Shown: positions 3,001 through 46,099 of the stretch, piece by piece
Numbering within the stretch: position 1 is the first letter of the stretch
How the letters are laid out: each line of letters begins with the position of its first letter
Assembly: GCA_905178155.1 (NCBI GenBank)
Contig: CAJINV010000007.1
Coordinates: forward strand, 3,738,265-3,802,264
Length of the DNA: 64,000 bases
Direction of reading: 5' to 3'
From: Amoebophrya sp. A120
Taxonomy: Eukaryota > Protista > Dinoflagellata
Program-made: the position numbers and the translations under genes
The notes under the pieces: generated by a model
The model's database searches: none
The model's input: the letters and a program-made list of their open reading frames with translations, nothing else
What the model was told of the DNA's origin: nothing

Positions 3001-6000
3001 AAGAGGGACAACGCATCTGCAGTCTACTCTGCTATTTGTCATGCAAAATTCACTAAAGATTCACCACGCCTCATGCTAACGCGTGTTAAAGCTCTAACCG
3101 ATGGCGGCGGTGGAGATGACGATGACGACGACAGTATCATTTGTAAAAACGTCCCCACCCCAGAGTTGTAATGCAAATCTGCATGCTGAAAATGTTTCTC
3201 ATGCGGAGACCCATGAGAAGCAGTCTCTAGTCGTGTTGTGGGATTTGTGATGCTAGAATCAGCATGATATGCTAGAACTGTGATGCTGCTGAACAAGCTA
3301 AACAGGATTACACTGCGAGGCCAAACTTGTCATGCGCAACAGCAAAAGCTGACAGATTTGTTTAGCAGATTTCCCAGCTTGACTCTGGTGTGGGGACGTT
3401 TTTACTCAGGATAGACAGCGATTCCGATGGCTCGAAGAATTCTTTCCCTGGAGACGACGATCTTCATGGGTCGGAAGACGAGGGGTCTGTTTATTCCGAC
3501 GACAATGAGGACAGAAATAACGATCGTACGAGTAAAAGCAGCCGGTCCAAGGCGTCGAAGTCCAGCTCAAAGGTCAGCTCCAGTGAGGAGCGCAGCGGCA
3601 GCTCTGCGAGTGGTCTAAGTGCCCAGAAGAGCAGTGATCCGCTTTTCCAAGAACAAGATGATAATCCGATATTAGAAGAAGAACAGCCGTCGGGGCGGGC
3701 CGGTGATCTTCCCAGTGGCGGCTTGTTTGCTGACAAAAATGTTGCTGAGATGTTAACATTTAGCGAGAACAAAGCGGATTGGGTACAAGAGCAAAAAGCG
3801 CGAGTGAAGGCAGAGAAAGAAAAGCAGGCGGCGCTCTTAGAGGAACGGCGAGCACGTGCGGCAAGACAAGCGGCAAAGGCGAAGAAGATTCTGCAAAAAG
3901 CGGTTTCCACGCCGGACGATTTAGTCACGTTTCTACGGGGGCAGCATTTCACAAGGAATCTGCTTCTGCTGTTGGAGGATGAAAGAGCAGCTGTAGGTAG
4001 GAGCAAAAACTACGGGGACGGTGAAGATGAAAGCAATAAAACACCGCAAGAGGAGGAGGACCCAAGCTGTTCTAGCAACGCGGAGCAGGAAATAAGCAAA
4101 AAATCCAAGAGCATTTTTTGTCCGCGCGGCGTCCGTCTGACCCCCGTACCACCAGGAGAATTTGTCAACACCAAAGCGGTGGACCATCAAAAATTGTCCT
4201 CCTCGACGAGATCACGACTAGACGAGGGAAGTACTGGAATTCCGCCAACGCGCTTGGCCGCAACCGCCGCGGCGCCCTACTGGGATTGTGTTTTCAACCC
4301 GGCGAAATACTTGAAGCCCTTGGAGTGTGAACTTCCCAGTGGGATCAAGGCGGATTTAATTACTCCGCTGACGTTATCCTGCGCCGTGCCGAATACGGGA
4401 GGCGAAGGGTTCAGCAACTTGTTGAACTGGTATAAAGTAGACGCATTGATGTTTATTTGCACCGCTTATCCTGTATGGTAGTTTGTATACATTGCAGAAT
4501 ACAGTACAGATCCGACGTAAATGTGCGACGTGCTGCCATGTTTGTAGTTTGCCTGGCCAGCTGCACGAGTATTCCATATTCGATGACGGATTGTTTACTT
4601 CCCGCTGAATCTTCCTATCCCTATCCGAAATAAACAAGCCGCAGAAGATCATCAACTTTTCCCTTCTCATGATCCCAGGTACATCTATGTGGGGCCTGAA
4701 ACATTAGCCCTTGCGACGTCGAAGCACGCGGGCGAGCAGACAGGGTTTGGCGCGGCCACCAGCGAACAGGGCGTTGCTCAACTTTCCAGTATCACCCAGT
4801 CAATTGTCCGTCCGGGCAAGGAGCTGCAGGAGCGCATCAAAAACCACGAGAAATTGCTGGAAGAGTCCCAGCCCACCACCGAGATCTGTCCGGCGCACTG
4901 GGGGAAGCGCTCCATCGCGTTTCGCTGTCTCGAGTGCGAGTACGACAACAACTGCATTATTTGCCCCGACTGCTTTTTCGACTCAAACCACGTGGGTCAC
5001 CGCACCATGCTGATCCGCACGCAGGGGGGCGCGTGCGACTGCGGCGACGCGGGCAGCTGGGATCCGAAGGGCTTCTGCTCCAAGCACGGCAGGAAAAAGA
5101 ACGACGACGCTTTTCTGTGTTTGGAAGTAGAAGAAGACGAAAGAGCTGCAGATACCACGGCAGGAACCGGGGCGGGGACAATGAATATTGCCATGGGTGG
5201 TAGTACTAGTACTTCTACAACGATGAAGTTGCTCGGGACGCAGACCGCGAAGCACCTGCGCGAGAAAACCTCCGAGAACCTCTTCGGTTTCCCAGACAAG
5301 GCGACGAAAGTACGCGCGGAGCAAGTGATTGACTATGTCGTGAAGCTCTACTCTTACATTGTGGAGCTGGGGGAGGAGCTGGAGCTGCTCCGCAAGGTGC
5401 TCTGCCAGGTCCGGGACAGCTTCGAGTGGCACTTCTATGAGCGCGCGCACCGGTACTGCCGCAAGGCGGTCCAGAAGATTGTGGGTGACAAGGGGTTGGC
5501 AGCGGGGGACGGGACGAATGATTTGCAAAATGGAGGCACAGTGGGTTCGGGGGACAACTCTAGTAGAGCTATGCCGAAGAGTTCATTCGATCTGAACGAG
5601 GCCCTGGATCAGATGATGCAGGGCGGGAACTGGGAGTGGGACCCCCAAGTATCCGGTGCAAAAGTAATATCATGCTTGTTATTCGTCCGATTGCAATAAA
5701 CATTCTCGCATAAGAACGGCGAGGAAGGGGGAATTGGTTTTGCACAGTTCCTACTGTTTGACAAAACAGAAACCGTTTGCGATGCTGGCTGATGCGCTAA
5801 AAATGCAAAAATGCTTTTGCAGTGCATACCAAGGTGACCTTGATCCAACTGGATCAGGCAATATGGGTGTGCGGCAGATTGTGCAGCAAGCAGTGGTATG
5901 CATTGCAAACGTATCCGAAGTAGCTCAACATTGTTCCAAATTGCATGATGACAACATCAAGCTCAACAAGTCTTGGCACCTCCAGGAGATGGAGGGGCAA

Positions 6001-9000
6001 ATAAAAGTGCAATTTGTAGTACAACAACGAACACTGCGATACAACTTTTGCACAGGATGACGGGCGCAGAACATGGTGAGCGCTGCGGCTCGCATGGGAT
6101 TAGCAATGGCCCCCGGCGGCGGAGCGGGAGTTCTTCCCGGAACTGCAAACAACACAACCGGGACTCAAACCGCAGCGAACACCACGAATACTACCACCGG
6201 AGGTCGCCCGCCAAGAATGCCAGGAACTACTGCAGCTTCCGGAGCAGGTGCAGGCGCGTCCTCTTCAAACGCACATCAAAATAACGCCCCTGCGTCGAGT
6301 ACAAACAAGCAGGCGAAGGAGGACCGGCACGCGAAGGAGGAGAGAAATGTCATGGAAAAAATGAGCACTTTGAAACACGTCGGCCGGTGCAGCGACCTGA
6401 AAATCAAAACCGCCGACGCGATGTTGTCCCGTGCAGAGGAGCTGATTTCGGGGCTGGAGGCAAACATGGAAAGTTACCGGCCGATTTGCTATTTGAGTGG
6501 GGCGGTTACATCAGCCACTAGTGAAGGAGATCAATATTTTGACCTCGATAATGAGCAAGTAGGAGGAGTAGCACCAAGGAAAACATCGGGAGCAAATGAG
6601 GTAGTTGCGCATGATCTTCAGCAACCGCAAGAACAGGAGTACGTGGAGGACAAGGAGATTTTGATCAACGACTTCGGCGTACTCGCCCTCTGGGAATCCT
6701 TTTACTACGAACAGGAGCGGCACATGCTGCAAATCCAGGAGGAAATCTCATCTTGGCTGCTGAAGCGCTGCCGCATCGCGTACGGGTTTCGTTTCATCCT
6801 CACGCAGAAGTTGACCGCGGCCTTTAACGTCGGGGAATACAGAAAAAACTCGCTGCGGAAAATTGTGGGCGAGGAGCTCTTAGCTGCGATGAATTTAACG
6901 GCTTCGAACAAAGATGTGGAGAACGATGTGAAGGGCAGCGGCGCCGACGGCAATGTCGACATTAATGTTGTTGTTCCGAATTTACAAAACACGTTTCTAC
7001 TGGACGAGAAGTCGTTTTGTCGTGTGAACAAAAAGATCTCTTCCACCCAGTTCCGAAAGAAGATGACGAGTTACCAGAAGGAACAGGAGCAGAGGCAGAT
7101 GGATCAGGAGCACAAGGCAAACATGGATGCGCTGAATATCAAAGCAGGCACAGGTGGAGCCCCCAAATCGCCCTCGGTGCCGAAAGAACTGGAGTTGTGG
7201 GAAATGATCGACGCTAGAAACAGCTACGCAGGAACTGCTGCTGGTGGAGCTGCGAGAACATCAACTACAGCAAAAATGGGTAAAAAAACCAATGCAGCTT
7301 TGATGTCGGCTACTGCCGCAGGAAAGCAGCCGTTAGCACTCGCGCAGAACAACGGCGCTGCTGACAAGGTCTTGTCTCCTCACCACCGGAGACGGCACCA
7401 CCGCGAATTGCGATACTTGCTGCAAAGGGAGGAAGAGAAAAAGATCAACATCTACGGAACCATCCTGCAGTGCGTGTTTAAGTCGAAAAGCAATGGAAGC
7501 ATCAGGAGCTCCCAGAAGCAGAACAAGAAGCGCAGCAATACAGTTAAGGACAGTGGTAAAAATTCGTCCTCGCTACTACTAGCCACAGAGGACCCAACAG
7601 ACTCCGAGGACTCAGACGAGGATCTGCTGCACACTGCAGACCTAGACGACGAGGAGCAAACTGTGAGCGTGAAAATCCCGCGGGTTTTTGCTGAGAGTAA
7701 AGCTGCGAGCCGAGGACATCATTCTATCTTCAGCAAGTCCAACATCCAAGCCCTGCAGACCATTGGTGGCCTGGAGAAAGAGTCGCCCTGGCAACACCTC
7801 GCGAGGTGGATGTTGGGCCGGGAAGTGGGAATTTTCAAGAAGGGCAGCGCGATCGTGGAGCAGGGCGTTTTTGAGGTGGAGCGCATGTTTCAGACGGCGG
7901 ACCCCTACGGCTGGCTCTCCGCGACCATTCTGCCTTCGAGATCGAGTTTTCCCTTCTCCGCGAATGCCTTCGCGGTGCCAGGGACAAGCTTCACCAGCTA
8001 CACTATGATTCAGGCGGTACAGTTGCTTGTCGAGGTTTTGTACTCTGTGTTTCGTTCTGTTGCTGGTTAAATCAGATATGCAGTTTCGCTTGCCATACTG
8101 TCAACCGTTGTAGTTGTTCGCTGTGTAATTTAGTAGCCCCATGTGCTCAAGAACATCCTTATCATTCTGAGCAAGAAAAGCATCTGCGTCATGGTTGTAG
8201 GCGAGTGCTTGGTACTATGTATATGTTTTTTGATACTTAAAATCTTAGGCTTATCAGGAGCGGATACCGCAAACTTGAGTTGTTGTGATCTTCTTTCATC
8301 TTGAATGAACTCCATCCCAGATCTGCCAAGGCAGCCTGGACAAGTGGCAAGACGCGTTCGCGCTGTTGCCGCACGTGAAGGAAATGAAACGAGCGAACTA
8401 CACGGCCAAGACGAAACTGAAGGAGATCTGTCCGGGCGTCACCACAGAAACGCTGCGGTCCAGCAGCACTTCGCTGTACGACCTCTTCATGCTTTTGGTG
8501 CAAACGAACGCCGGGTTCAAGCTCGAGTTCACGAAGGTTTTCGTGAATCTCCTCGACGAGACTATGAACGTGGCACAGTTGCTGGAGGACGGCTACGAGA
8601 ACACCCAGAAATCCCTTCTGTTTGAGAAAATCCAGAATGCGCAGGGGTTCATCATGAAAAAGGTCGCGAACTTGACGAGCTTGATGGTGAAAAACCACAA
8701 AAACGGCTTGGACCGCAACGCGATCGAGATTGCCAACATATCCGAGGAAATAAAACACCCATCTTCCCCAACATCCATTTTGTCATGTAAAACATGCAAG
8801 AAAAAGAAATCCAGCGTCTGTCTCTGTCACGCAAAAAATGGAGGATGTTGGGGACGGGTGTAGTTTTTTCAATGTGATGCGATGCCTTGAAACTTCCGTC
8901 CGTCGAGGAACAACTGACCGAGTACCGGGCGCAGCGGTTCATGCTGACGTCCATTTTGACCATGAATCGGGAGCATTGGGAGCCGGTGCAGATGAAAGGG

Positions 9001-12000
9001 GAAGAGATATCAAATGTAAAAGTGTCTGGGTCTGGAAGATTCCGGGATTTGTGATGCATATTTTGTATGATCCATGATTCATGTAATGCATGATCTAGCA
9101 TCACAGATTTTTAGAGGGCTTCCTGATGCCTATTCCGCATGAGAGATGCCCTCTCCCGTGATAGGATCACCGTGTCTGATCATTAGACCCCCTGTATACT
9201 TTTTAGCGCGCAACCGGCCACGCGCGTAGTTCTTCGAGCAAGTTTGTAAGACTAACCCATCAAGGCAATACTGGAACTCCACCTTGCTCGCGGGCTTGGA
9301 TGGTAAGGCAGGTCAGCCACACATCGCGCCCACTGGCTGTAGCCATGCGTAAGCAATCGATAGCGGTTTTGCAGGTGCAGCCGGGTGGTAGTTAGGAAGT
9401 GGGCCGCGTCTCCACCTAGGGGTATCGGCAGAGGCTAAATCTGTTCTAACGCCCAGGTATTGGCAGAGGCTAAATCTGTTCTAACGCCCACCCGCCAGGA
9501 GTTAAATGGTACTACTACTACTACTACTACGCGTAACACAAACAGGACCCCTGTTGCTGGTCACGCAATACAGATTTTTTTTGGGATCCACAGACAGCAT
9601 GACAAGTTGCAACTTTGGAGACCCAGACAATGTTGCAATCCATAAGAGATGTACATGAACCAAGTCCAGCACTTGTCCGTCCAGTTGTTAACTATCGCGG
9701 AGGTGGTGCTGCAGATGGAGCCGAAAAACCGCAATTCGCAAACGCCCTACTGCGTCATCCGCGTGTTGACGCAGCTGTTTTTCCTGACCAAAGCCATGAC
9801 GGAGGCCAGCTGGAAGCACTTCGGCAAAAAGCGCAAAGCCTTCACCGACGCCAAGTCGAGCAGCGCGGGCTACTACAGCAACGTCGATGAAGAAGCCTCT
9901 CTGTCCAAGCAGGAGTTCACGGAGATGCTGATGCGGGCGAGGCTGGCGGACTACTTGGAAGCGGACCTGTCCTATGTGTTATACCACAAACAGTTTTCCG
10001 AAACGTTTGTCTGCGACGTGCAGAAGCAGGAGGAGCGGAAGTTTCTGTTCCGGATTTTATCCTCCCACTGGCAGGCGAATTTACAGCTGCGGCACTTCGA
10101 GTCCCACGTGGCTTATGAGATCCGGATGGCAGAGTGGCAGAACTGGCGCGGGCGGGAGCTGAATTTAACGCGGGCCACGAAAACACTATGTGACTACGCG
10201 CGGAATTGCTACGATTTGCGGAAAACACAATACTGGTACAAGGGTCTGGTGGAGTGTTTGGAGAACGAAGTGGTTGCTTACCAGTCCTGTTGCACCGTCG
10301 GAAAGGACTATGAGACCTACGGTGAAACATATGTCAGGCATACGCAACGGGACCGGGTGACGAAGACGAAAATGTTCTTTAACACGGCGCCCGACGCGGC
10401 GGATTCAGGTACATCATCCAAGAAAAACCGCAACAATTTATCCCGCTGTGAAAAAAATGCATCGCATTCGTTTGCTATTGGAAACAGTCTAGGCATTTAA
10501 TTTGTTTCTACAAAATTTGAAATTTTTAGCATGCAACCATCAAAAGCACAACATGCAACCTGCGAAAGTTTTGCTGCAGTCATGCATGATTGCTGCAACC
10601 CTCATGCACCGTGGCATTTATTGCAGGTAGTACTTGCATTCAACATGTTGAGTAAAGAGAACCTTCTCTCTGGGAAGTTGGGACTCGTCGAGTGCGATTC
10701 GCTTTTGCGCAGCATACAACAACCTGGACGGAACATCAAGCACTGCGAAAAACAATACGTCCTCGAGCAACAAGCCCAACCCGCAGTACACGAATTGCGG
10801 TTCGTTTCACATTCTGCTGCAAAGAATTTTGATCACGTCCATCAATTTCGACTTGATCGCACTGGTTTCCTCCTTCGACTCGTCCCTTCCTGCGAACGGG
10901 GTGAAGAGGGAAAAACATGCGAAAAACAAAAAATACCTGTTCGAGATGGAAGAATTGCTGCTGAACATTTTCCCGGAGCACGTGGTTATTCTGATGCTCC
11001 GGAACGCATCGCTGGTGTTAGCGTTTTCCCGGGCGATCTCTAACTCGTTGTGGATTCGGAACGGCATGGTTATCAACCGCAAAAGTGTCTGGGTCTGAAA
11101 GGATCGGAACTTGTGATGCGTGTTTCGGATCCTACAGAGATCTGTGATGCATAACGTGCAAAAGGTGCCCACTTCTGGCCATGCTGAGACGGCATTTCTC
11201 ATGCAGAATACGCATCACCAAGGAGCTACAGAACCTGTGATGCTAGGCCCTGCATTCCAGCAGTGGGGGAGCTCGGCAAAACTGCATGACAAATCTCGGA
11301 ATCTCCCAGACCCAGACATTTTTGCATTTGATAATGGTGATGCAGGAACAAAACGAGGCGTATCTGGAGGATGGACGGAAGCTATGGCGTTCTCGTCAAC
11401 TGTTACATTCTCAACTGTTGCATGAATTTGCCATGCAAGAATGGCAAAAGTTAAAGGGATGACCTTGCGCGTCTTGCATGACAGATTCCGCCCAGATTCT
11501 CAGTCTGTTTGGCTCTTCGAGAAATTGTCATGCGAAGCAGCTTGAGCGTGTCAATTCTGATTGTGATTTTGCATGACAAATCGTGTAACAGTTGAGAATG
11601 TAACATTTGAGAACGCCATAGAAGCAGGAGGACGTTTTGACTTTGCAGTTCTGCGCCATGATGCTCACCCTTCATCGACGGAAGCGGGAGCGGGAATCGT
11701 GGTTGAGAAGGGGAAGATTTTTGGACTTTGTGAAAAACGAGCAAAAATCTTCTGGTCGAAAGGAGAAAGCGGTGGTGGAGGTGATGATGGGTCGGGAGGT
11801 CGAAGGCGCGCCGGCCGAAGAAAGACAACATGACGATGAACAACATTTCAACACGTCAGCTGGCGTTGGGAGCAGTAGGCCGACAAACACTGTCGACATC
11901 CCGATCCTCGACCTGACAACGACCACCCTCCAAACCGATAATTTACTGAACACCAGCACGACGAACACGGGGACTATTTTTGCGGGAGCTGCAAACAACT

Positions 12001-15000
12001 TAGTACCTGGTGATCCGAATTACAGCAAGGGGGCCTCCTTCTTCCCGGAGGAGTCACCTTTCTCCACCGCACGGGAATCCGAACAGCAACTCTCCAGCTC
12101 TTTCGAAACCGCGGACTCGAAATTGCCCTCGGCGAGTTCCGCCGTCAGTTCGGCCAACGAGGAAGATGAACTACAGGTGAAAAATCCCTCCGGAAGTAGT
12201 GGTGACAGTATGAAGTTCTCCGAGGCCGACGATGGCGGGTACGACTTGAAAAAGAGAAAACTCGACCAAGAAGCGCTGCAGAACCTGAACCTTAATCAGG
12301 GTGCAGCCGCAAGCTCCAGCATCTCTTTCGCGACCAGTGGTGCCGGATTTTACAACAACGAGGACCAGAGCAAAAATAACGTAACAGGGGCGATGGATCA
12401 GTACCAGATCCTGCATGGCCAACCGTCTTCTAGAATGAACAAATACAACTACGACTTCATGGTGCACACAGCTTCGGATTTGCATCAAATGTCGATGGAG
12501 CTGGGCCATGAGAAGAACGACTTCCTCGAAGTACTGCTAAGGACAGCTGGCGAAGCCAGCAGTTCATCGAACAATACCGGTCTTGTTCACGCGATTGCAT
12601 CACAGAAAGACCGGGATGCAATTCTTGATGAGTTGCGAAAGCCGGCGGCGCACGAGAACCGTGATCAGCACGTTCCTTCTTGCTCCGTCGACACCTCTTT
12701 CGAACCGGACTTTGCACTGCGGCTAGCCGAATCCCTTTTCCTGGTCCAATATCTGCCGAACCCCCTGATTTACAACGATTTCGACGGAACGACTTCGCCC
12801 GGCTCGGTTTTGGATCGAAATTTCTACGCGCGCTGCCTGCTGTACGGGTCAGACGTGATTAAGAAGATTAAACAGGAAAAACCCCAAACGCGGAACAATC
12901 CCTGCGAAGTGGTGAACAAGTTTGTCTCCCGGATTTTGGACGACTACTACTTGGTGCAGGAGATCGTTCACGACGCACCCACCAGCAGTCAGAGACAGGC
13001 CGAAGCCGCGTCCTTCCAGTGCCGGCTGGATTCCGCCATGCCCGTGGATGTGGAGCTCAGGAGAGAATTTGAAAGAAGTTACGGCACCGAGGATGAGAGA
13101 CAAAACAAGGACAACATCGAGTGCAACTTGCTGGAATCGCCGACCTACTTGATCAATCAAGCGGCCTACGTGGCGTCCAGCGAAGTGAATGTGCCCATCC
13201 TGTTGAAGCACCAGCAAAACATCTTTGACGTTTACCACCAAGACTTGCAGGCGAAGATGTTGAAGGAGCATAAGGCTGCTGCGCAAGGAGTAGATGTAGA
13301 TCTTAGAGCAGCAAGTGGAAAGAACAAGCGTGCTGGTGTTCGTGGATCTGCATCTACAACTTCGGCCAACATTTTTCCTTCGAACAAACAGGCCCGCGTG
13401 TGGCCGAGCTGCAAGGACGGTGCGAGATTGCACCAAGCGCTAGATCCGGAGCTGCAAGCGGTGAAGATCACCAACGCCGAAGTATTGCGGTTTCTGCTGG
13501 AGGAAATCGCGTTGAACCTCCTGAATGTTGCCTCCAAACACGATTTTTGGACGTCCGCGTTTCTGAAATCGCAGACCACAAGCAGTACCAGCTCCAGCAT
13601 GGTGGGGACGCAGACATCCGGGTACCCATTGGAGACGTTTTACCACCTGTTGTCCGTCACGCTCGCTGATCCGGATTGTATCTTGCAGGAGCAGTTGATG
13701 GCCCAGCGGGAGAACTCCCGGGGGGAAAACGCCGACCTGTTCAACGGGGGAAATGGGGAGTACGCGAGTGTATCAAATGCAAAAATGCCTGGGTCTGGAA
13801 GATTTCTAGATTTGTCATGCATATTTTCCATGACCCATGATGTCTGTGATGCATGCCGCAGCATCACAGATTTTTAGAGCGCTTTGCGATACCTCTACCG
13901 CATGAGAAACGCCCTCTCCGCGTAGCGCAAACTGGAGTCCTCTTGCTGGTCATGCAATGCAAATTTTTTCAGAATCCAGAGACAGCATTACAAGTTTAGA
14001 ATGTTCCAGACACAGACACTTTTGCATTTGATAGAGTGGGTTCGGAAACAACAATGAAACCGCTGCGTCCAGTCCGGCAGATGGTGTCGCGGCTTCCAGC
14101 CCGGTTGACAAATTAGAAACGGAGAAAGAGCTGGTGGAAATCTGGAACGTTTTACCGGCGGACTTTTTTGCTGGAGAAAGAAAAGGAGAGCAGGGGATGA
14201 GCAGTGACAGTGAAGACGATCGTGCTGCTTCTATGCAGGATAAAAGGCATAATTCTGCCTCTTCGTTCAACAATATTCTCGACGAGGAGGAGCAAGATGA
14301 AGATCACGAGCAAGCAATCTTACTCGCGATAAACACCAGCTCCATCACTCGTGCCTCGCAGCAGCGGCCGTCCGCCATGTCGGCAGCGTCTAATTCCGCG
14401 AACCGAATCCAGCTCAACCAGTCGCAGTGCGTTGCCCGCGAAACCAGGATGGCTTTCTGCTTGAAGCGCCAGCTCGTGCAGATCCTGGCCGGGGGGAGAT
14501 TTTCGCGTTCGGAACTCGAGGCCATTGTGCAGACGCAGTATCCAGACAGGATTTGGCAAAAAGTGTTGCCGGAAATTTCGGATTCCGTTTGGTCCTTCGA
14601 CACAAAACAGCTGAAATCTACCGCCCGAGGGGGCGGCGCGGTGACCACGGCAAGCTCGCCGCAGAATGAAGACGAAGAGGTGGCGAATAAGGACGAGAAG
14701 AAATTGTACTACATGCTGAAGAAATCTTCAGGTGCCGCAGGTTCTGGTGGATCATCTGGCGACGCAAAGAACATAAACAGTTCCAGTATAGAAGTCAAAC
14801 CCGCCGTATCCACAGAAAAAAACCCATCCACATCCATTTTTTGCATGACAAACACAGGACTTGGTACGTGTTTTGCATCACAAATTGGATGTGGATGGGT
14901 TTGTTTCTGTGGATACGCCGACCTCTACGACGCCGCTTACAACCAGTTTTTGATCCCGAAGCAGAAGCGCACGGAAAACTTGGTGGAACGTGCGACCGAA

Positions 15001-18000
15001 AATTTAACGAGGGTGAACGCCGCGATGCTGGGGCTGGACCCGAAAACCTGGTTTAGGGACTACACGCATGATGAAAATCTTCGTGATGCTGATTCTACAA
15101 ATTATCCAATGGCTTCATTACTGAACAACAGCTCGTCCGAGGACGAAGAAGCCTTCCATGGAGTTGGACCAGGTGCGGAAAATAGCGCTGACGCAGCTGC
15201 ACTGCTCGACCAGAACAGTACGGGTGCCTCCACACCGGTCCGGAAAAAGCGCAAGGTGTTGAAGATGATAAACCAAGAAAAGCAAGCTCGCGGCCCCGTA
15301 TCGGACGATGATGTTGATGGCGACAACGACCCAATGGACGTTGATGACGTTGACTCTTCTGGAATGTTGAAAAAGACCGCAAAAACTGTCCTTCTCTCCC
15401 AGCAAACTATCTGGGAAAGCATCCGACAGAGGAGATTCAAGCTTTTGAGAGAAAGCATCTCAGGACACGTTGCAAAAACGAGCACCAGCAGCACCTCCGC
15501 GGGTGCAACAGAGCCAGCTGTTCCTTCTGAGCAACAGCCTCCATGGCCCCTGTCGGACACGAACTCCAGCTGGGCGATTCTCCTGCTCTTGGCCGCCGGG
15601 TGTCCGAACTCGGAATGTCTGCAACCGCACGTGCTCAAGCTGATCGACGCGTGTCGCCCGGCGTTTGCCGCCAATGAGCGCGTGGATTGCAATTTCCAGC
15701 GGGTTCTGGTCCACTCTCTGGCAATGGACAAGCCCGCTGGGAAGCTGAATTCCAAAGTCTGCTTGCAAACGGGAAGAAGCTTGAGTACCGGGGGGATGGT
15801 CATGAACGGTGCCAGTTTTCATCATGTTCGTCCTCACGCGGGGTCGTCCGGAGGCGGTGCAGCTTCTGCAGGCGGAAATAGATTTCCCCCGCCACCGAGC
15901 ACGTCAACAACTCCAATAAACAGGTTGAATCTATTCCAACCTGGGCCCCCGCATCAAGGCGAGCCGTATCGTGACAGAGCGGGCACCGCAAGCACCGAGG
16001 GGGATCCGTCAACGTTGGAAGAGAGCCGGCAGAGGTTACGCGACCTGGTGCGGAGCACCAGGAATGGTCTCAGCTGGGAAGCAGACGAAGACGAGCTAGT
16101 ACAAGGAAGTTCTTCTACCGCAGCTGCTGGTGGTCCCAACTACACGACCGGCGCAGCTTCTGCGCCACGACCACTTGGGGAGCAAGCGAGTACTTCTAGC
16201 AATGGCGCGGCTGGTTTCTTTGACCAGCAAATAAACGAGCCCAAACCTCTGCCCGCCCCGCCGAACAGCACAGGCGGGGTGGTTCGGATCGCGTGCATTC
16301 CGTTGAAGCAAAATTTGGTAGAGCAGGACCTGGTGAAGGAGTCGCAACAGCATCCGAGAGCTCCCGGAGCCGTGCGGCTCTCCACGTATCTGGAGCAACG
16401 GGAAAACGTCTTCGGAGGCATCTTGCACGACGGGAAAACAAATGAGAAAAAAAGGCTGTTGGAGGTGGCGGAGCAAGAGCAACCTAGAAGTAGAACATCT
16501 TCTTATTTTCCATCGAACGCGGAAGCGATAGTGCAACATACCTCGAATTTAGCGAGAAACGCTGCGGTAAGGAAGTTTTTTGAGCAGTTCGAAGATTGCT
16601 GTCGGGAGAAGGAAGCCGTTGCCTTTCGCTTGACCCTGTACCTGCTGATGCAGAAAAAAATGAAAGCAAAACTGGGCCGCGCATCCTCTAGTACTGCGGG
16701 AACAAGTACAACTATTAAAGGAGCTACTAGTACTAGCAGCACTGCTGGAATTACTAGTACAACAGGCGGGCGGTCTTTGATCACGAGCCACACGATGTCA
16801 CAACTTCAGCAGAACGTGGTCGACAAGAAGGGGTTCACCGTGAAAGTGAGTTGCGTGAAGAGCAATCACGACCAAAACGTAAACGGTACAAGCGAGGAGG
16901 AGGACTCCGTTCGAAACATGACCTATGATGTCGACAAGGAGCACGAACACCTACGCCAGCAGCCTTATAAAAACAGTGATATCTTCGACGATGACGCAAG
17001 CACAAGCAGCGGTCCACTCCAAATCGGTGACTTGATTTTCGTAGACCATCAGTCTGACTTTGCGAGTTTTGCAGTGCAAAACCGAAAGCCACGAGCGGCG
17101 GAGGTTCATCTTGCACGTACAGCTCTATCTTCGTCGGACAGGAGCAAGAGTCAGGCTCTTCGAGGACTTGCGCAAGTGGACGAAGAGGACCACACAGTAT
17201 CAACTTCCTTCACGTTCTTCGAGAACCCAAAAGTAGACTACTATACCGGCGACGGAACGACCCCGAGGACGGGCAGCTGCACCAGCGACTTTACAGGAAT
17301 GACCTCCTCGTCCTCGAACAAGATGAGCATGAGCAACTTCCTTCTCCGGCCCAACGCGATCGAAGCGACCGTGTTGACCTCGCAAATTTTCTCCAACCTG
17401 TCCTTTGCCGCTCGGAGTTGCCAGGAGTACTCGGAGGTCGATGCGTTGCTCCAAAAAGCCGAGCAGTTTTTCGAGGACAATGGGTTTGACACGCTGCGGG
17501 ACATCTTGGAATTCTACAACCAAGAGGAAGATGCGCAGTACTACGCTCTGGTACAACAAGCAAACGAAAATCAGGAGGAACTGGCGATGAAAGCGGGACA
17601 AGATGTCGGCACGAGGAGTGCAGGCGCTGCGGCGGGCGTAGCTCTCGGTGGAGCTGCAGGGGGTAGTACCAGTAGTAGGACGAACAAAATCTTCTCCGCT
17701 GGCACGGCAGCTGCGCAGCAAGACAGTACCTCTCGAGCCACGACTTCTATTGCCGCGGAAAACAAGAACAGGGCTTCTACGGTCGCTGCCCCAGGACTAC
17801 AATGGGACGAAGAGTCCCTGCAGAAGATAAATCGCAATCGCCCTACCTCGACCTTGGGAGTGAGGGAAGAGAAGCTTTTCCGTTTCACGGTGAGGCAGCA
17901 GATCGCAGCCTACCTGAAAGGGTGGCAGATGGAGCAAATTCCCGGGGCGAAGCAGCTCTGGGACCGGTGCGGGAAGGAGTTGTTTTTCGTGCCGCAATTT

Positions 18001-21000
18001 TTGGACCAAAGCCAAGAGGAAGGTGCATCGTCAAAGTTGAACAAAGCGCGACATAGCAACAAGTCGTCGGTGAACGGAAGTCCAAAGGAGGAGGCGAGAG
18101 ATGAAAGTAGAAAAAGGGGCGACGAAAACAATGATCGTCCAGACTTCGGTCCACAAGTGGCAGTGCCGAAAAATAATAATGGACTGACGCCGGCGGTCCC
18201 TCAGGCGGCCGTCGGAGAAGCGGGGACAAGAATTGGAGCAACGACCAGAGGACAAGATCAATCCTCTTCGGTTTCTCCATCGAAACCTCCGACAGAGCAA
18301 AAACGAACCGGGTTTCTCGGTAGTCTGTTCAATGCGGTTTTCCCTGGTGGCACTGCATCGACCGCAGCAGAATCCAACACGGGATTGAAACTCGTCGATC
18401 ACAGTTCGGTAGCGACCAGCGGAACTGTTGGACCTTCTACATCGACACTATCTAGCACTTCTGCCGATCAGGTTGCGAACAGCGAAATCCAAACCACCGC
18501 GAGCGGAACTTCCGTTCCTTCATCCACAGCGGCGAGCAGTGCCTCGACTGCCGGAGCATCAACAGCACAGGCCGCTGGTGCTGCCGCTGCGTCAGGGCTT
18601 AGTACAAGAACTGTTGCGGGCGCCGGGGGTACTTCCTCGGCGTCAGCAGCTCAGGCCGGCACGGATGGTGTAGAACATAATCCCGCAGGAGCTGCTGCAA
18701 AAGTTGGGTCTAAGTCGGCCGGTGTTCTTGAGAAAGAGCAGTCGAAGAGTGCAGCAAAATCTGCGGACCAGACTCTGGAAGACAAGAAAGCCAAGGCCAA
18801 GAAGCGGCAGGAGGCCATGCTCAAGAAGATGAAACAGAAGCAAGCCAACTTCATGAATAATACCGAGACAGCGAAGCAGCAAGCGGCCTCCGGGACGAAA
18901 AATTCATCTGGTGGTGCTGGGGAAAATAAAACTGCCACAGCTCCATCTCCCCCGTCCGATGACGAGGAAGACGAGCTGACGTGCTGCATCTGTCGTGTCG
19001 GCGTGCAGACGGCGCACAAGTACAACAATTCATCTTCTGGCGGTGGACCGGAGGAGCTCCACGACGTGGCGGGATACCTCAGTCTCTTCGAAACCCGTGG
19101 CGCCGGCCCGGGCAGCTTTTTGAACAAAGAAGGAGGGTGCTTGTCTTTGACGTCATGCAACCATGTGGCGCATTTGGAATGCTTGAAGAACTACTATGCA
19201 ATGCAAAAGCGTCGTACTAGTATAAATTGCATTTTTACAAATTAGCCAGGCATATACAAATTTGCAATGCTGACTTACCTTGAAAAAGAGATTTGTAAAG
19301 CCCATAAATGCAATTACTAGGACTACGATACTTTTGCACAGGATAAATACCTTCGCGAGACAAAGCCGAACGCAAACAACACGCGCACCCAGGAACTGTA
19401 TTTTTATGCCCAGGAAAACAACGAGTTCGCGTGCCCTTTGTGCCGGTCCGTCTGCAACGGACTGCTACCGTTGAACGAGCCGATTTGCATGGATTGCGAC
19501 GTGGGACACAACCAGGATCTTAGAAAGTTGTTCGACGAAAATTTCGCCCAGCTGACCAAAGAAACGGAGGTGCTGTTGCAAACCGGGCTCGAAGTTTCAA
19601 AGGCAAACGGATTGATAATGATGTCAACGTCTTCCTCAGCAGGTGACGTGGTTTCCAGCACGAATGCGAATGGTGAAGCCGGTACAGAAGTTGCCGCGCC
19701 GTCAGGGACAACTACAACCTCCTCCACTACACAGCAACTAGTGCCCGCCACTGCACAACACGCAGCGGCGAGTTCTTCAAGTTTCCACATCTACCCGCTC
19801 TCCTTCCAGCTGGAAAACTTGTACTTAAGATCCAAAGCGGATTCCGTAGTCTCGTGCTTCGACCCGGGGCGCAGTACTAGTAAGGGGATTCAGTACAATG
19901 CAGCTATGAGCAGTGCCCTCAATTATCCGTATCCAGATTTTGAACCAGCTGCAGGGGACCCCTTTTACAGTGCGCGACCAGGACAACATCAACAAGGTGG
20001 GGCAGCAGCACCGAAGAAAACATCCAGGCGGGGGACCAAGGACCAAGACGGCCTTCAGATGCCTGATAGTAAGGACATAAAATACCCCCTGCGAATGAAC
20101 TCGCCCCTCTTCTACATGGCAGCCTCGCTGGAAATGTGGCCGCACGATATTGCGCGGAATCTCATCTTCCCCCCAGGGGAACTGGTTGACGAGGTACAGG
20201 AGCTCCCGCGAGGGGTGGAGCAAACCGCACTGCAACTAAACGGGAAGAAGTCACCCGGAGTTCTCGGAGCAGCTACGAAGAGCAGCAGTCCCCCGTACGA
20301 AGAAGTTCGGTTGTGGCACAATCGAAGACAGGAGTCCCTGCGGAAACGGCGACACTATCTGGAGTCCGGAATGATTCTCCAGTACGACCTGTCTCTCTTC
20401 CTCACCTGCCCCGACCGGTCGTGGCCGGACTGCCACCCAGAAACCGACTTCAACACGTATCTGATCCCCGAGCCCGCGAAGAAGGGGACGGCTGGGAAAA
20501 AGGTGAAGAAATCTTCGGTGAGCTACGAGGATGGCAGCTACTCGGACGCGGAAGAGAACTTGGAAGAGGCTTTGAACGAATTCGAAACCATGGTGGAGCG
20601 GGTCGCGAACGAAATGAACGTGCCGACAGCCGGGCTAACAACTGGTACCAGCACGGGAACGGACAATCAGGGCGGTGGAGCTGGAGGTGCACTGGATGGC
20701 ACGTCAACACCTCTACAAGATCCCGAGTTCCCAAGTGGAGGCCAGTCCGGGGCAGCTGCGACAGGAACGATAAATAAGGCGGGTAGCCGAAAACTACAGC
20801 TGAAGCAGCTGAACACCGAAGCTGCCAGTCGAAAACGCGCCATTCGCCCCCTGTTCTACCGCCCCACGACCGCCGCCGGCACGGTCTATGTGGAGGACAA
20901 CATGCCCGACCCGATGACGCGGGATGCGAAGGAGATCTATGCGTTGCACTTGCACTCCCTAACCCAGTTACCGCAGCGCCTCGAGATGCTGACGCCGTGG

Positions 21001-27000: not shown

Positions 27001-28584
27001 GTGGTACCACCCAACGCCTACAAGGAAAACTTGATGCGCATGGTGCCCCCGGCGCACATGCTCATTGCCATTTACGAGCTGTTCGGGCAAACCCGGGGCG
27101 GGTACAACTGGCAGCGGTGTAACCTGGGCGGCCCGCCGCAGCTGCTGGAGCAGCTGGCCATGGCAAACCGCCGCAAGTTCATGGGCTGCAAATTCCCCGA
27201 GAAAATCAAGAAACTGCTCATGTTGGGGCCCAAATTCTCCCTGACGAACGTGCGCACCGTCGGGAGACTGGTGGAGAAATTGCCGAAGTTGTTCCTGGAC
27301 GGTGGGAGTGACAGCACAGCTTCTTCGTCCACCTTGTCGGGTGGCGGAACAGGATCGGCGGCAGGACCATCGTCCATCTCTGGCGGCGCAGGAGGCAATG
27401 CTTCCTCGAATAATTGTAGTACGGCAACCGACGAGATGCGGGACTTTTACCGGGCCACGTACGCGAACTACCTTTGTGCGCAGGAGCTTTTCCAATTCGA
27501 CAAGCCGTCCAGGATTTTTGAGGAGGACCGGGAGCGGAACCGGCGGAGAAACGATCCGGAGCACACGAAGATGCAGAAGGGGGCAGCGTGCCGGGAGCTG
27601 GTAAGACTAGTCGGTGGAAGCGCGGGCAAAGAAGCCGAGCTCCTCACAAAGCAGGAGGAGATGAACAAAATGAATGCGGATATTATGGACAGCGGCAGCA
27701 GAAACTCGCCTTCCCCGAAGCGGGCGTCTTCTCCCTCTGGTGCACTCGGAAAGAAGATGAAAACCGCATCACAGTTGTCCCAGGAAGGAACAAACAATAA
27801 AGGGACACCAGCAGCAGCTACTAGCAGTAGTACAACTGCAACTTCGGGTATTAATCTTAAAAAGTTAGACGGCCCAGAGACCGCCAAAGCCATCAGGAAT
27901 TTGGTCATTTTCGGAAAGAAGCCAGCCGATTTTGCGAATGAGGAGAGGAAGAAGGGGAATAAAGCCAAAACGAAACAGCCGAACAAGGAGAGTGCAGCGT
28001 TGTTGACTATACCGAGCGAGGCGCCTACTGTGAGTCATCAGCTCCAGCCCGCGTTGATCGAGTTTATCCCCCTACCGGAATCCCTCTCCGGCCTCCTCGC
28101 GTACACGTGGGAGCACTACTGTTTTTTTGGCAACAAGAAGCCTTCCGAACCCGCGGTGTGTCTTCTGACCGGCCGCGTCATCGGCATGGCGCAGGACTGC
28201 AAGGGCTTTCCCCGCAACTACTTTGGCATGTCGGTGGCGCACCGGCGGAGCATGCAAAACAGCAAAATCGGCGAGGCCACCGCCTACTCCGGGCCGGTCG
28301 GTGCCGGGCACGGGATCTACCTGCTCCCCTACACGGCGAGCGTGTTGGTTACGTGCGAGAACGGGCTGTGCTACCTGTGGGACTACGCGTTTCCCTACAG
28401 CGACATGTTCGGGGAGAACACCCAGCTACGCGGCGCGGGCCACCACTTGAAGCGGATCCTGGAGATGCGGCTGGACCGGCGGAAGTTGGACGCGCTGCGC
28501 CAGATCTACACGTTCGGAGGGTGTCACCAGGAAATCATACGAGTGCAGAACCGGACCATGAAATACTTCCCGAACGCGCTCTGA
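1..28584 (+). CDS. Giant UBR1/UBR2-like N-end-rule E3 ubiquitin ligase, 5' end outside window. Inferred exons: <1-222, 375-2144, 3106-3134, 3419-4429, 4679-5649, 6065-8016, 8321-8738, 8885-9007, 9650-~10410, ~10683-11070, 11339-11382, 11626-13770, 14039-14806, 14921-19194, 19351-22660, 22820-22879, 23147-25049, 25209-28584
   Basis: UBR box (CPAHWGKRSIAFRCLECEYDNNCIICPDCF..HVGH..GGACDCGDAGSWDPKGFCSKH, ~4884-5087). UBR1-type motifs follow in order: HLSVQLLT, SFHILLQR, WIRNG..Q, D..TLQ; RING split by an intron (CCICR..SCNHVAHLECL / EFACPLCRSVCNGLLP); C-terminal PAVCLLTG..GAGHGIYLL..YSDMFGE. Exon joins checked for frame by hand. Confidence 0.9.
223..374 (+). other. Canonical GT-AG intron (UBR gene)
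   Basis: GTAATA...CACCAG; phase 0 join gives ESG|VSGD. Confidence 0.75.
2145..3097. mobile_element. TTA...TAA inverted-repeat insertion, inferred non-canonical intron (~950 bp)
   Basis: Imperfect subterminal IR (cgttagc..ggtgaatttgcagtgaattt..gcatgac vs gtcatgcaaaattcact..attcacc..gctaacg). CGATGGC direct repeat at 2138-2144 and 3099-3105. Removal keeps frame. Confidence 0.65.
3135..3413. mobile_element. IR introner (279 bp), TSD GACAG
   Basis: TATC...GATA ends; IR taaaaacgtcccca..cagagt / actctg..tggggacgttttta; GACAG at 3130-3134 and 3414-3418; excision gives DDDS|DSDGSK. Confidence 0.9.
4430..4678 (+). other. Canonical GT-AG intron (UBR gene)
   Basis: GTATAA...CCCAG; phase 2 join gives LNW|YIYVGPE. 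Confidence 0.8.
5650..6059. mobile_element. Degenerate, enlarged introner with family-A-like ends (410 bp)
   Basis: TATCCGGTGCAAAAGT...ACTTTTGCACAGGATG. TSD decayed (CCAAG/ACGGG), but element + 5 nt removal gives DPQA|QNMVS in frame. A GT(5649)-AG(6069) register is also in frame. Confidence 0.7.
8017..8320 (+). other. Canonical GT-AG intron (alternative GC donor at 8014)
   Basis: GTACAG...TCCCAG; phase 0 join gives IQA|ICQGSL. Confidence 0.75.
8739..8879. mobile_element. Degenerate family-D introner (~141 bp)
   Basis: IR cacccatcttccccaacatccatttt / aaaatggaggatgttggggacgggtg resembles 14807-14915. TSD CAACA/CGATG differs only by transitions. Element + 5 nt removal is in frame. Confidence 0.7.
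9157..9530. mobile_element. 374-bp secondary insertion with (TAC)7 tail, possibly retroposed
   Basis: Interrupts the family-B sequence gccctctcc|gcgta that is intact in the 13771 copy; 637-374 = 263 bp, the family length. Confidence 0.7.
9421..9490. repeat. Tandem repeat, 2 x 35 bp
   Basis: ggtat(c/t)ggcagaggctaaatctgttctaacgccca twice, 1 mismatch. Confidence 0.95.
10409..10682 (+). other. Intron with uncertain, probably non-canonical boundaries
   Basis: AT-rich, stop-containing, CATG-motif-rich gap between two UBR1-like exons in different frames. No AG after the in-frame stop at 10649 and before ~10683 matches the phase of the GT at 10409. Confidence 0.55.
11071..11333. mobile_element. Family-B introner (263 bp), reverse orientation, TSD ATGGT
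   Basis: TATCAACCGCAAAAGTGTCTGGGTCTG...CAGACCCAGACATTTTTGCATTTGATA; excision gives WIRNGMV|MQEQ. Confidence 0.95.
11383..11620. mobile_element. Family-C introner (238 bp), TSD GAAGC
   Basis: TATGGCGTTCTC..GTTACATTCTCAACTGTT / AACAGTTGAGAATGTAAC..GAGAACGCCATA; excision gives DGRK|QEDVLTLQ. Confidence 0.95.
13771..14033. mobile_element. Family-B introner (263 bp), TSD GAGTG
   Basis: TATCAAATGCAAAA...TTTTGCATTTGATA; excision gives EYASG|FGN in frame. Confidence 0.95.
14807..14915. mobile_element. Family-D introner (109 bp), TSD CGCCG, in frame and stop-free
   Basis: TATCCACAGAAA..ACCCATCCACATCCA / TGGATGTGGATGGGT..TTTCTGTGGATA; CGCCG at 14802-14806 and 14916-14920. Confidence 0.92.
19195..19345. 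mobile_element. Family-A introner (151 bp) inside the RING domain, TSD ACTAC/AATAC
   Basis: TATGCAATGCAAAAG...CTTTTGCACAGGATA; excision rebuilds HLECLKNY|LRE..EFACPLCR. Confidence 0.92.
22661..22814. mobile_element. Family-A introner (154 bp), TSD CCACC
   Basis: TATGCATTGCAAAAGTATCGT...ACGATACTTTTGCACAGGATA; frame restored. Confidence 0.95.
22880..23141. mobile_element. Family-B introner (262 bp), TSD CCACC
   Basis: TATGGATTGCAAAAATGTCTGGGTCTGGA...TCCAGACCCAGACA..ACATTTGATA; frame restored. Confidence 0.95.
25050..25203. mobile_element. Family-A introner (154 bp), TSD TACAA
   Basis: TATGCAATGCAAAAGT...ACTTTTGCAATGCATA; excision gives EEYK|TDKQ. Confidence 0.95.
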
Positions 28585-37035: not shown

Positions 37036-37414
37036 CCCCGGCGGCTATACTTGGTACTAGATGAACTGCAGGCATCGATGAGCATCACACGCCCGATTAG
37101 TGCGAGCTTGTTGCTCCTGTGGCCGTGTATGGATTGCCCGGTAGCTTCCGCGTGCGCAAGTGCTCTGTGTCTGTACCTATCCACAGAGAGATTGCTCGCC
37201 TACTCTCCGACGATTTCTTTTCCTTCTGCAGTTCTGCATGGTGCATGATTCATTTTTGGTGACGATTGTCCGCATGCCATACTAACTTCAAGGGAAGCGT
37301 GCTCGTCTTTTCTTGCTGTTGCGCGATAAGTCATCAGCATCCCCACGTCCGTGTGAAGAACACGACCAAAGATGCACCGAGCACCAATAGCAATATAATT
37401 AAAGCCCTACAGCC

Positions 37415-43394: not shown

Positions 43395-46099
43395 ATGTCC
43401 GGTTTGTTCACACCATGGCGTCCGTGCACCGTGATGATCCGCGGCCCCGAGTCAGGCAAATTTGTGGAAGCTTTGCCAGACGGGAATCTCGCGGCCGCCG
43501 CCTCTGCCGGCGGGACCGCTTTCTCCTTCGAAGACGGTCGCACGACGTATGGCGTTCTCAAACGTTACATTCTCAACTGTTCCATGAAATTTGTCATGCA
43601 AGAACGGCAAAAGTGAAAGGGAAAAGATTGGGCCTTTTGCATTACAGGTTTGGAGCAGATTATAATGCTATCTACCGCGTCGAGAAGTTGTCATGCGGAG
43701 AAGGCTTGATCGTGTGAAGAGCGATAGTGTTTTTGCATGACAAATCATGTAACAGTTGAGAATGTAACATTTGAGAACGCCATACGACGCTGACAGGCTC
43801 GGGCGTGGTGTTCGGTACGATTACTGCTACACAGCGACAGGCAGCAAACGTCGACCAAAAAGTGGCTGTTCAAGAATCGAGTGCCAGCGGGTCAGAATTT
43901 GTCCCGTCCACCGGCATTGCCCATTTTTCGCTGTTTCAGCCTTTCCTACGCAGTGTGGCTACGAATGGTGAGAGCCATGTGGACAAACCAGATGAGCAGC
44001 ATGATGCCCAGACCGATTTTGAGCATGTACTCTTGCCAGAAACGGAAGTATTTGTCAAAGTTCAACATCAAGAAGCAGCGGATGGTCGGAGCGAAAACTT
44101 GATCCAAAGCACAAACCAGTCTGCAGCATCTCAATTTCACATGGTGAAAGTTCGGCCGACGCGAATTTTGCACGCAGGGAATGCGCAACAAGAGTTTATG
44201 AGGCACGCAGGGCCTTGCAAAATGTCCCTTGATGGAACAAGTGGTGCTGCCATTGCTTCCGAAGGGAGTGAGGACGCCTGGCTTTCTGTGACGGAGCGCA
44301 CGCAGCTGGCGAAGGTTCCCGTGTGTTGCATTGCGGCGGCTAGTGGTCTTGGATCTCCGTTGACCAGCAACGCCGGTATTCGTGACGGCACCTTGTTCCA
44401 CCCAGCGTTTCTCTTCGTCGAGTTTGAGGCGAACAACAAACCAACAGAGGTTGGAGCGCCTGATGCGAATGTCGGAGATGAGCCGCCAGGTGCAAATCTT
44501 CTGGCAGCAGGAGGTGGCGGCACGGTTCTACATGAACATGATCGAAGCCATAACCAATACCGCCACACAGCAAGAAGCGTAATTCCCACGGGCAGCCAAG
44601 TTCTCCTGCAAGCCGGTGCGTATGGGCACACGAGCCTCTTTGCGAATTTGAAAATCCGGTCTTCCATCGCGAACAGGTCTGATTTCATGTACTTGCTGGA
44701 TGCAGTGACGCACGAGGGTATGGCGGGCGGGGCTGTGTCTGTTCGTCGAAGAACTAGCGGAGATGAGCAGCATGAGGATAGGCTAATTGGGCTGCTACTG
44801 CCTCCACTGAAAGTTGGAACGATCGCTGATGGGAGCGGGGCAGGAACTGCTGGGTCGCCTGGAACAAGTGATGCTTTTTCCTTGGCTGTGGCACTGACAA
44901 GTGCCGATGCTGGAGGTAATGGAGACAGGAGCTTGAGGAGCAAAATGAAACTGGAAGCCGTGATGACATGTAGCGGGAATGAGATGATGGAGACACTAAC
45001 CACAAGCACATTAGAGGTTCACAATCTTCAACCCGAGCGGTCATTGAAAACGACCGACCCTTTCTTCCGCCGCAGCGTGGCTCGACTCGTTCACCCAGAC
45101 CGTGGCACTTGGGGCACAGCGGTCGTTCTGACGACAAAACCAAGAGCTTTTTTCCTGACCTGTGCGCACGTTGCGCGCGACACGAGGTTCATGCGTGTGC
45201 AGCTGCCCCCGGCTCAGGGGATGGATTCGTATGTGAAACGCACAAGTGCCGAGGCCGACCTGCTACAGCGCCACACAGCATTCGTAACGATCCGCAAAGT
45301 CTGGGATGGATTCACGAGTGGCTCTGGGATGGACGCCGCATTGCTTGTTGTAGACAGCACTGCGCAACAAAAGCTGGTAGAGGAATGCTTCGAAGAGGTA
45401 CCCTGGGTGACTGATGAAACAAAAATGCCCCTGAGCAGAAAAGACGGCTCCGATAGAACAACGGAATGCGCCGCCGTCGGCTTTCCTGTCTTCGAGGACC
45501 AGAGCTTGTTCCAAAATTTTCAACCGACTGTCACCAAGGGCCTTGTGTCGTCAGTGAAGCTTGGAAACAAAACGGTTATGCTCCGAAGTACCGCCGCAGT
45601 GCATAACGGAAATTCCGGCGGAGCCTTGGTTTTGCCAGGAAGAGGACTGATAGGGCTGCTCGTCATGAACATTCAACGCGGAGGAGCACCAGCAATCCCT
45701 GATAGCTCAGCGGACGCGGAACAAGATGAACATGATGCGAGTGCATCACGAAAGAGCGAGGCAGAGGAAGGCAAAGACTCGTTATCGTCGCCGCAGTATT
45801 ACCCACACTTAAACTTCAGCATTCCCGTCTGGCAAAAGCTCTCGCCGATCTATCACTTTTGCAAGAATTTGAAAAAAAAACACCTGTTTGAGTTCACGTT
45901 TTTTAATAGAATTGAACCGATGACACAAATCGAAAAGCAGTTGTGGCTGCTTGACGAGAATGCTTCAGCGGGTTTGACACTAGAGGATGGACAATTGCAA
46001 ATGAAAGACGTTTCCAAACTAGAGCAGCGCGCTGCGTATGCTAGGACAGTTCTGAATATTTTCACGAATGAGAGCCGAGCGGCAAGGGCCAGACTGTAG
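43395..46099 (+). CDS. DEG15/TYSND1-like peroxisomal processing serine protease; exons 43395-43547, 43790-46099
   Basis: N-terminal VMIRGP..GRTT|LTGSGVV; trypsin-like LTCAHV, DAALL, TAAVHNGNSGGAL; PHLNFSIP; C-terminal PTS1 ARL. Confidence 0.85.
43548..43784. mobile_element. Family-C introner (237 bp), TSD CGACG
   Basis: About 33-bp near-perfect TIR TATGGCGTTCTCAAA(C/T)GTTACATTCTCAACTGTT; homologous throughout to 11383-11620. Confidence 0.95.

Follow-up and report, generated by a model that had tools for sequence, protein, structure and literature searches.

The introners described from the dinoflagellate Amoebophrya sp. A120 have terminal inverted repeats (TIRs) that start with TAT, followed by about seven variable bases and a run of A, and are flanked by short direct repeats (3-5 nt; 5 bp in the legend of Fig. 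S19). Their borders are non-canonical, and they form hairpins and fall into many families, according to Farhat 2021 (PMC7789003). The same features were found in the elements of a stretch of 64,000 nucleotides from this organism (assembly GCA_905178155.1, contig CAJINV010000007.1, positions 3,738,265 to 3,802,264 of the forward strand), which at its full length is referred to as the window. The lengths of the elements (109, 150, 209, 235, 261, 279, 306 and 322) resemble those in rows of the Gozashti 2025 dataset (PMC12130899). The elements are thus already known; no published account was found of an internal word common to their families, about AYYTGTVATGC, or of its spacing. Neither these nor a 2 x 6-bp box inside the TIR are given in the text or supplement text of PMC7789003 or in 13 of the 14 supplements of PMC12130899, although the word might be visible, without comment, in two figures of PMC7789003 (S19 and S25). 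On balance, the word is probably a sub-terminal repeat of one non-autonomous TIR lineage and, judging from sequence, the putative double-stranded DNA site of a protein on which the mobility of these elements depends.

Sub-terminal repeats are bound by the transposase in the Emigrant/Lemi1 system of miniature transposable elements with inverted repeats (MITEs) (PMC1636448), and TnpA binds the sub-terminal sites of CACTA elements (PMC2613891). Both systems, with hAT and Sleeping Beauty cited there, resemble the present elements in carrying a short word in both orientations inside the TIRs, conserved above the spacers and unevenly distributed at the two ends. Their repeats copy part of the TIR or differ by family, whereas the word here does neither and is common to 12 families. 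The word here also spans the whole element at a spacing of 30-33 bp, unlike in those systems, its binding being putative.

The 5-bp target site duplication (TSD) found here is as in Tdd-4/5 and falls within the 4-5 bp given for the integrase-related Ginger/Tdd DNA transposons (PMC2836005), whereas their termini are TGTNR and the ends here are TAT(C/G). Family 38 of A120 is labelled 'Ginger, 5-bp TSD, TA/TA termini' in the dataset of PMC12130899, while the text of that paper describes it as being without Ginger termini and TSDs; the TA ends of the present elements match this family. Nonconventional introns of euglenids are also MITE-like, with TIR-paired ends, TSD-like repeats and no GT-AG, but in the available part of PMC11282704 conserved end pairing alone is described and no shared, regularly spaced internal word.

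The shared word and its spacing

Elements were searched for in the window without use of the word, by TAT…ATA ends and a 5-bp duplication. This yielded 14 elements, against 0-4 in block-shuffled windows: four of family A, four of family B and one B-like, two of family D, and one each of C, E and X. Between 13 and 19 of the 20 terminal bases are complementary in their TIRs, and the 5-bp TSD, which shows no strong target preference, is perfect in 13 of the 14 and matched at 4/5 positions in the remaining one.

The 8-mer TGTCATGC occurs 19 times in the window, compared to 2.13 expected and a highest count of 8 in 100 dinucleotide shuffles. All 11 positions listed in the original prediction, which was made from sequence alone, were correct, strand included, and eight further copies were found at 9597, 11476, 22970, 23094, 34330, 43689, 43735 and 46155. 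The kindred words TGTGATGC and TGTAATGC were present in 15 and 10 copies, and TGTTATGC in none across the window. The elements make up 9% of the window and contain 17 of the 19 TGTCATGC; the three words together (TGTVATGC) give 44 sites, 37 of them within the 6,042 bp of TIR elements. Compared to 300 shuffles of the elements themselves, the sites numbered 15 versus 0.34 in family A, 8 versus 0.19 in B, 4 versus 0.11 in C, 7 versus 0.13 in D and 2 versus 0.007 in E, and zero in element X1. The enrichment over shuffled background, on which the original prediction had made its case depend, holds. The fuller word is about A(T/C)(T/C)TGT(C/G/A)ATGC, with the weaker variants TCTCATGC and TGT(A/G/C)TTGC.

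The elements and related features are listed below with the positions of their sites (+ or - where the strand is given).

3135..3413: family C introner of 279 bp, TSD GACAG, sites 3167, 3197 (TCTCATGC), 3246, 3279 and 3328, all on +, with pairs spaced 30 and 33 bp
9008..9644: family A introner with a nested insert (~9157-9532), TSD AGAGA, sites 9050+, 9082+ (32 apart), 9098-, 9137- and 9597-
11071..11333: oppositely oriented family A introner, TSD ATGGT, sites 11112+, 11143+ (31 apart), 11197+, 11236+ and 11284-
11383..11620: family D introner, TSD GAAGC, sites 11476-, 11526+ and 11571-
13771..14033: family A introner, TSD GAGTG, sites 13813+, 13845+ (32 apart), 13861-, 13900- and 13985-
14807..14915: family E introner of 109 bp, TSD CGCCG, sites 14843- and 14875- (32 apart)
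19195..19345: family B introner, TSD matched at 4/5 positions, single weak site 19263
22661..22814: family B introner, TSD CCACC, sites 22734+ and 22765+ (31 apart)
22880..23141: family A introner, TSD CCACC, sites 22922+, 22970-, 23009- and 23094-
25050..25203: B-like introner, TSD TACAA, sites 25099-, 25135+ and 25174+
43548..43784: family D introner, TSD CGACG, sites 43592+, 43639-, 43689+ and 43735-
53463..53617: oppositely oriented family B introner, TSD AACCT, sites 53538-, 53555+ and 53572+
59291..59438: family B introner, TSD TGGGG, sites 59325-, 59346- and 59363+
5650..5828: X1, decayed TAT…ATA element, TSD CCAAG, without a strong site (best score 9.3)
5897..6059: decayed B-like copy, TIR 11/20, TSD 3/5, without a strong interior site
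8739..8879: E-like copy, decayed, with no more than weak sites (10.5 at best), 75 nt from the nearest in-frame GT-AG pair
10439..10716: decayed TAT…ATA copy, no site with a score of at least 8
2145..3097: F1, an element of a different type with TTA…TAA ends, 8-bp TSD matched at 7/8 positions, strong sites 2196 and 3037
216..28581, + strand: UBR/N-recognin-type ubiquitin ligase gene (zf-UBR, PRT6_C), host of most elements, a putative single-gene span

Seven of the 58 strong sites in the window lie outside the elements. The one at 34330 is within a GT-AG intron (34188-34368), and the one at 46155 is just past a trypsin-like gene. The site at 3037, which had been listed together with the others, is a real copy of TGTCATGC but sits in F1. 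The two strong sites of F1 are 51 and 53 bp from the element ends, and the family of F1 is repeated in the genome, with the matching continuing through the left site. TTA ends like those of F1 are described for introners of strain A25, not A120.

A scan with the family A TIR alone gave at least 157 stretches, and the 80 listed share one assembly prefix. The same motif-blind method was applied to 363 kb of unique DNA (L002-L157) of this related assembly and revealed 294 elements. Of these, 284 fall into 12 families delimited solely by their TIR and TSD, and 10 are singletons. Seven of the families are absent from the window, and family A, with 144 of the 294 elements, is over-sampled by the design of the scan. 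The families are 109-322 bp in length, non-coding, bounded by TIR and TSD and of high copy number, as is typical of MITEs. Among 8-mers found in at least 40% of a family's members, TGTCATGC was the most widely shared (11/12 families), and the runners-up were mostly its overlaps and variants. TGTVATGC was present in all 12 families and in 280 of the 284 members, at a density of 11.9 per kb in elements compared to 0.19 per kb in long open reading frames (ORFs; 25 in 132 kb) and 0.57 per kb in other non-ORF DNA outside detected elements (75 in 132 kb). The matches outside detected elements numbered 437, of which 337 were in missed or truncated copies. The number, order and orientation of the sites vary from family to family, and most elements carry the word in both orientations. 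Other TIR elements are mostly without it: G1, at 60081-61940 of the window, has none in 1,860 bp, and in the related assembly those in L022 and L045 have none and that in L057 has one.

When scored by leave-one-family-out matrices, same-strand sites peak 31-33 bp apart, facing sites at 15-16 and 45-48 bp, and back-to-back sites at 16-18, 34-35 and 48-50 bp. A same-strand pair 30-33 bp apart is present in 11/12 family consensuses; randomised positions gave a mean of 2.25 families and a maximum of 7 in 5,000 trials, or a maximum of 9 in 2,000 for any 4-bp window. In the window such pairs are found at 3167/3197, 3246/3279, 9050/9082, 11112/11143, 13813/13845, 14843/14875 and 22734/22765. This rule is absent from the original prediction. 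The spacers between paired sites are kept in length and not in sequence, and a protein that docks on a single side of duplex DNA would be expected to prefer three helical turns between like sites.

The first inward site lies no more than 62 bp from the end at 19 of the 24 family ends, at 32-33 bp in five, 40-46 bp in ten, 52-56 bp in three to four and 60 bp in one; 18 of these 19 ends thus fall into the first three classes. The 40-46-bp class is nine to ten bp further in than the 32-33-bp class, and two types of end, 11 bp apart, are present in family I. The offsets of the first site are roughly whole helical turns: for a period of 10.5 bp the Rayleigh test gave p 7e-4, or a median p of 0.006 when each family contributed a single end.

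Ends, kinship and removal of the elements

The families share a common end plan consisting of TAT(C/G)…ATA, in most cases an A-tract spanning positions 11-15, a repeat of 2 x 6 bp at positions 17-28 and the 5-bp TSD. A terminal profile of 588 ends displayed TAT (itself a search criterion), about seven variable bases and then the A-run, which deviates in families D, J, K and M. At TIR positions 17-28 two 6-mers stand in direct repeat; they are family-specific, with an identity of 0.70 at lag 6 and 0.26-0.41 at other lags. With these features in common the families are not 'otherwise unrelated', as they had been described, whereas the claim that one word is common to families differing in length, TIR interior and spacers was confirmed. 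After masking of sites and TIRs the interiors did not align, and the objection that the families are simply one diverged family was not borne out: 3 of 66 family pairs (A-K, C-J and C-D) were above all 40 shuffles, with about 1.6 expected. Because of the shared end plan, the sequences point to a single lineage in which the end boxes have diversified and the internal word has stayed the same.

In all families, TIR positions 4-10 change faster than the spacers between close copies, with an observed to expected ratio (O/E) of up to 3.4. The same few end types recur across families, as in B and C, hinting at an exchange of ends between families.

In the window, cutting out an element together with one TSD joins compatible open frames. 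A GT-AG pair within the slide of the TSD was available in none of the 14 window elements and in 8 of 96 strand-called elements. By a coding model, 55 of 239 elements of the related assembly with 120-nt flanks had both flanks confidently coding, and in 55/55 the frame was restored by removing the element plus 5 bp; a six-frame ORF-length test of the TSD length was noisy (104 versus 70 versus 70 of 178) and was abandoned for the coding model. The gene for the largest subunit of RNA polymerase II (RPB1; L077, 1043-5543) contains four TAT…ATA elements, one of 972 bp with a nested insert. Two removals join the protein at yeast residues 830|831|832 and 1068|1069|1070, and there is no GT-AG option. 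Frame restoration and the RPB1 joins together indicate that exact removal is demanded by the proteins.

One RNA run contributed 96 reads, all on a family A end, beside which the word lies, and none on exons. A second run had 17 records, none of which bridged a junction, and a third gave 0 reads, these exons being uncovered by reads. The summed contig depth was about 1.4 million at the family A end compared to about 27 in single-copy bins, a rough figure and not a copy number; it is a rough sign that family A ends number tens of thousands.

A proposed protein reading the word, and other explanations

According to our preferred reading, a protein would dock on sites along a single face of the helix, in register with the element end, and help to build the end or cutting complex. 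A faster-evolving domain might read the family-specific box at TIR positions 17-28. The cutting enzyme could be an integrase-like DDE protein leaving 5-bp duplications, the grounds being the 5-bp TSD and the TA-ended family 38 (Gozashti 2025), these alone. The reader of the word may belong to the transposase or be a host protein that was co-opted. Selection would act chiefly through which copies get copied, and the transcript would be freed of the element and one TSD through the paired TIRs, as proposed by Farhat 2021. The common protein-binding site suggested in the original prediction is retained, still putative, as the best explanation of the shared word.

Several observations weigh against this. 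A Pfam transposase was found in none of the 18 window ORFs and in none of the 150 long ORFs compared, out of 161 in the loci, and Farhat 2021 found no transposase in A120. In the known systems, as in CACTA (PMC2613891), the repeats vary between families and the termini are conserved; the pattern here is reversed. No inward site lies within 62 bp at 5 of the 24 family ends, including both ends of the abundant family B, the left end of family N (60 bp) falls out of phase, periods anywhere between 9.5 and 12 bp fit nearly equally well (p 0.001-0.003), and family D is without a 30-33-bp pair. The better conservation of motif columns than of other interior columns, seen in 12/12 families, speaks for the reading, but its test is partly circular. 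F1, with other ends and an 8-bp TSD, has two strong sites. Copies further from an in-frame GT-AG pair tend weakly to have more sites (n 57, rho 0.30, p 0.02; within family A, rho 0.32, p 0.13). In close copies, private changes are depleted at motif positions to 0.51 of the spacer rate, and the controlled motif O/E in the closest copies is still 0.7.

The search for a mobilising enzyme was otherwise also negative. An autonomous partner with the same ends was found neither in the window nor in the 363 kb of loci; the long TAT…ATA spans (2.6 kb in L065, 1.1 kb in L019) were nested or chance pairs with uninformative ORFs; and short integrase and reverse transcriptase patterns gave five isolated matches only. 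Viral contigs compared with four TIR patterns gave one chance match without TIR or motif, three patterns being unmatched. Farhat 2021 (PMC7789003) argued against transposase-mediated mobilisation in general, whereas the end grammar shared here points to one mobilising lineage.

That all families descend from one ancestor built of a 32-bp repeat, with a word that is no longer read, is improbable. The shared end architecture, hence shared ancestry, and the interior traces in A-K, C-J and C-D would fit such passive inheritance, but the number, order and orientation of the sites differ among families, and the spacers have diverged while sites and spacing persist, a differential conservation that strongly disfavours it. 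Private changes at motif positions overall are 0.34-0.51 of the spacer rate, and with base content and CpG controlled for, their rate of change among diverged copies is 0.3-0.5 of that in the spacers. Toward the closest copies the controlled O/E rises from 0.3 to 0.7 for the motif and from 0.4 to 0.7 for TIR positions 16-30, ratios which are biased by the binning by spacer distance itself. The motif and TIR 16-30 relax alike, so there is no sign of separate selection after insertion; an apparent constraint on the motif while the TIR relaxes was lost after splitting of TIR positions and base-content control. This bears also on the idea that a host DNA-binding protein reads the lattice on the chromosome and marks co-transcriptional excision in either orientation, in place of U1 and GT-AG, besides or instead of helping transposition. 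We consider this unlikely, albeit the most credible of the alternatives. The universal word beside family-specific TIR boxes, its recurrence in F1 despite other ends and TSD length, the failure to detect U1 in these genomes (PMC7789003), the residual depletion of private changes at motif positions and the weak link between site number and absence of a nearby GT-AG all agree with it. Motif constraint, however, follows TIR constraint, and coding-embedded copies have no excess of sites (+0.07, n=54, versus +0.58, n=14, with non-coding-like flanks; p 0.11). Element B1 (one weak site, in-frame GT-AG 29 nt off) and the decayed copy at 8739-8879 (no strong site, GT-AG 75 nt off) nevertheless lie between open frames. 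In the decayed window copies TIR, TSD and motif are lost together between open frames; an in-frame GT-AG lies within 18 nt in 3/4 of them, but also in 30/57 ordinary copies. G1, considered as a motif-free non-canonical intron, is no clean counter-example, having an in-frame GT-AG pair 54-66 nt off. The word may have a DNA-level role in splicing. A bolder combination, in which a host protein sits on the helically phased TGTVATGC lattice in introners numbering tens of thousands, serves transposases of differing TIR specificity in common and doubles as an orientation-free, DNA-encoded intron mark recruiting excision without U1, seems to us unlikely too, and slightly more so.

The original prediction had raised the possibility that the word marks these introns in place of GT-AG. 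As a mark on RNA this fails the strand test. Elements in coding sequence are oriented 19:19 in family A, 6:4 in C, 6:3 in H and 2:4 in I, and in family C, where the word is on one strand, six coding-embedded copies present it forward only and four as the reverse complement only on the coding strand. Because this one-stranded family sits in genes both ways, a single-stranded RNA signal is unlikely. An RNA-level word more generally, be it a protein-binding sequence or forward-reverse helices guiding the excision machinery, is the least probable of the explanations considered. Predicted folds have 30-82% of the motif bases paired to a different site in 11/12 families, and most elements have both orientations, but family C shows 0% site-site pairing, and the fixed same-strand spacing, free spacers and near-whole-turn offsets suit double-stranded DNA. 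An RBFOX-like RNA site was rejected, since two common variants are without GCAUG and orientation is free. Hardly more probable is that the host uses the word generally in its non-coding DNA or chromatin, either as an ApiAP2-like TGCATG site or as a DVNP or nucleosome positioning signal, and that the elements acquired it to escape silencing or to keep transcription passing through. The CATGC core, which resembles a known apicomplexan AP2 site, and the higher density of sites in non-ORF DNA outside elements than in ORFs were counted in its favour. Yet many of these non-ORF matches are decayed copies, few strong window sites lie outside elements, one of nine hand-picked non-TIR intron intervals has a strong site, and offsets tied to element ends suggest an end-related job.

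Neighbouring genes and significance

The insert at ~9157-9532, nested in a family A copy, has an internal 33-bp duplication, a (TAC)n tail and no motif sites, which suggests a non-LTR (long terminal repeat) retroelement or a short interspersed element. G1 is a fold-back element with 472-bp TIRs (86%) and TTA…TAA ends within a T-run; it lies in a helicase-like gene (AAA_11 downstream), and its removal with 2, 5 or 8 bases preserves the frame. At 37403-42661 a Pectinacetylesterase domain precedes an ABC-transporter-like region on the same strand (its signature read by eye at ~40710-40800), possibly a fusion. The intergenic DNA at 29640-31000 and 35000-37000 is GC-rich (GC at most 0.68), with local inverted repeats and no motif elements.

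Catalogues of the introner families of Amoebophrya list hundreds to thousands of distinct groups. Their common grammar of TAT ends, 5-bp TSD, family-specific 2 x 6-bp box and universal word at three-turn spacing suggests one mobilising lineage and offers a defined DNA bait for the missing protein. Two separable signals may be present, paired TIRs for removal and an internal lattice for mobility. If the reader were a host factor needed for removal, this would be a new way of defining introns, and if a host lattice does mark them, introns would be defined on the chromosome instead of on the RNA.

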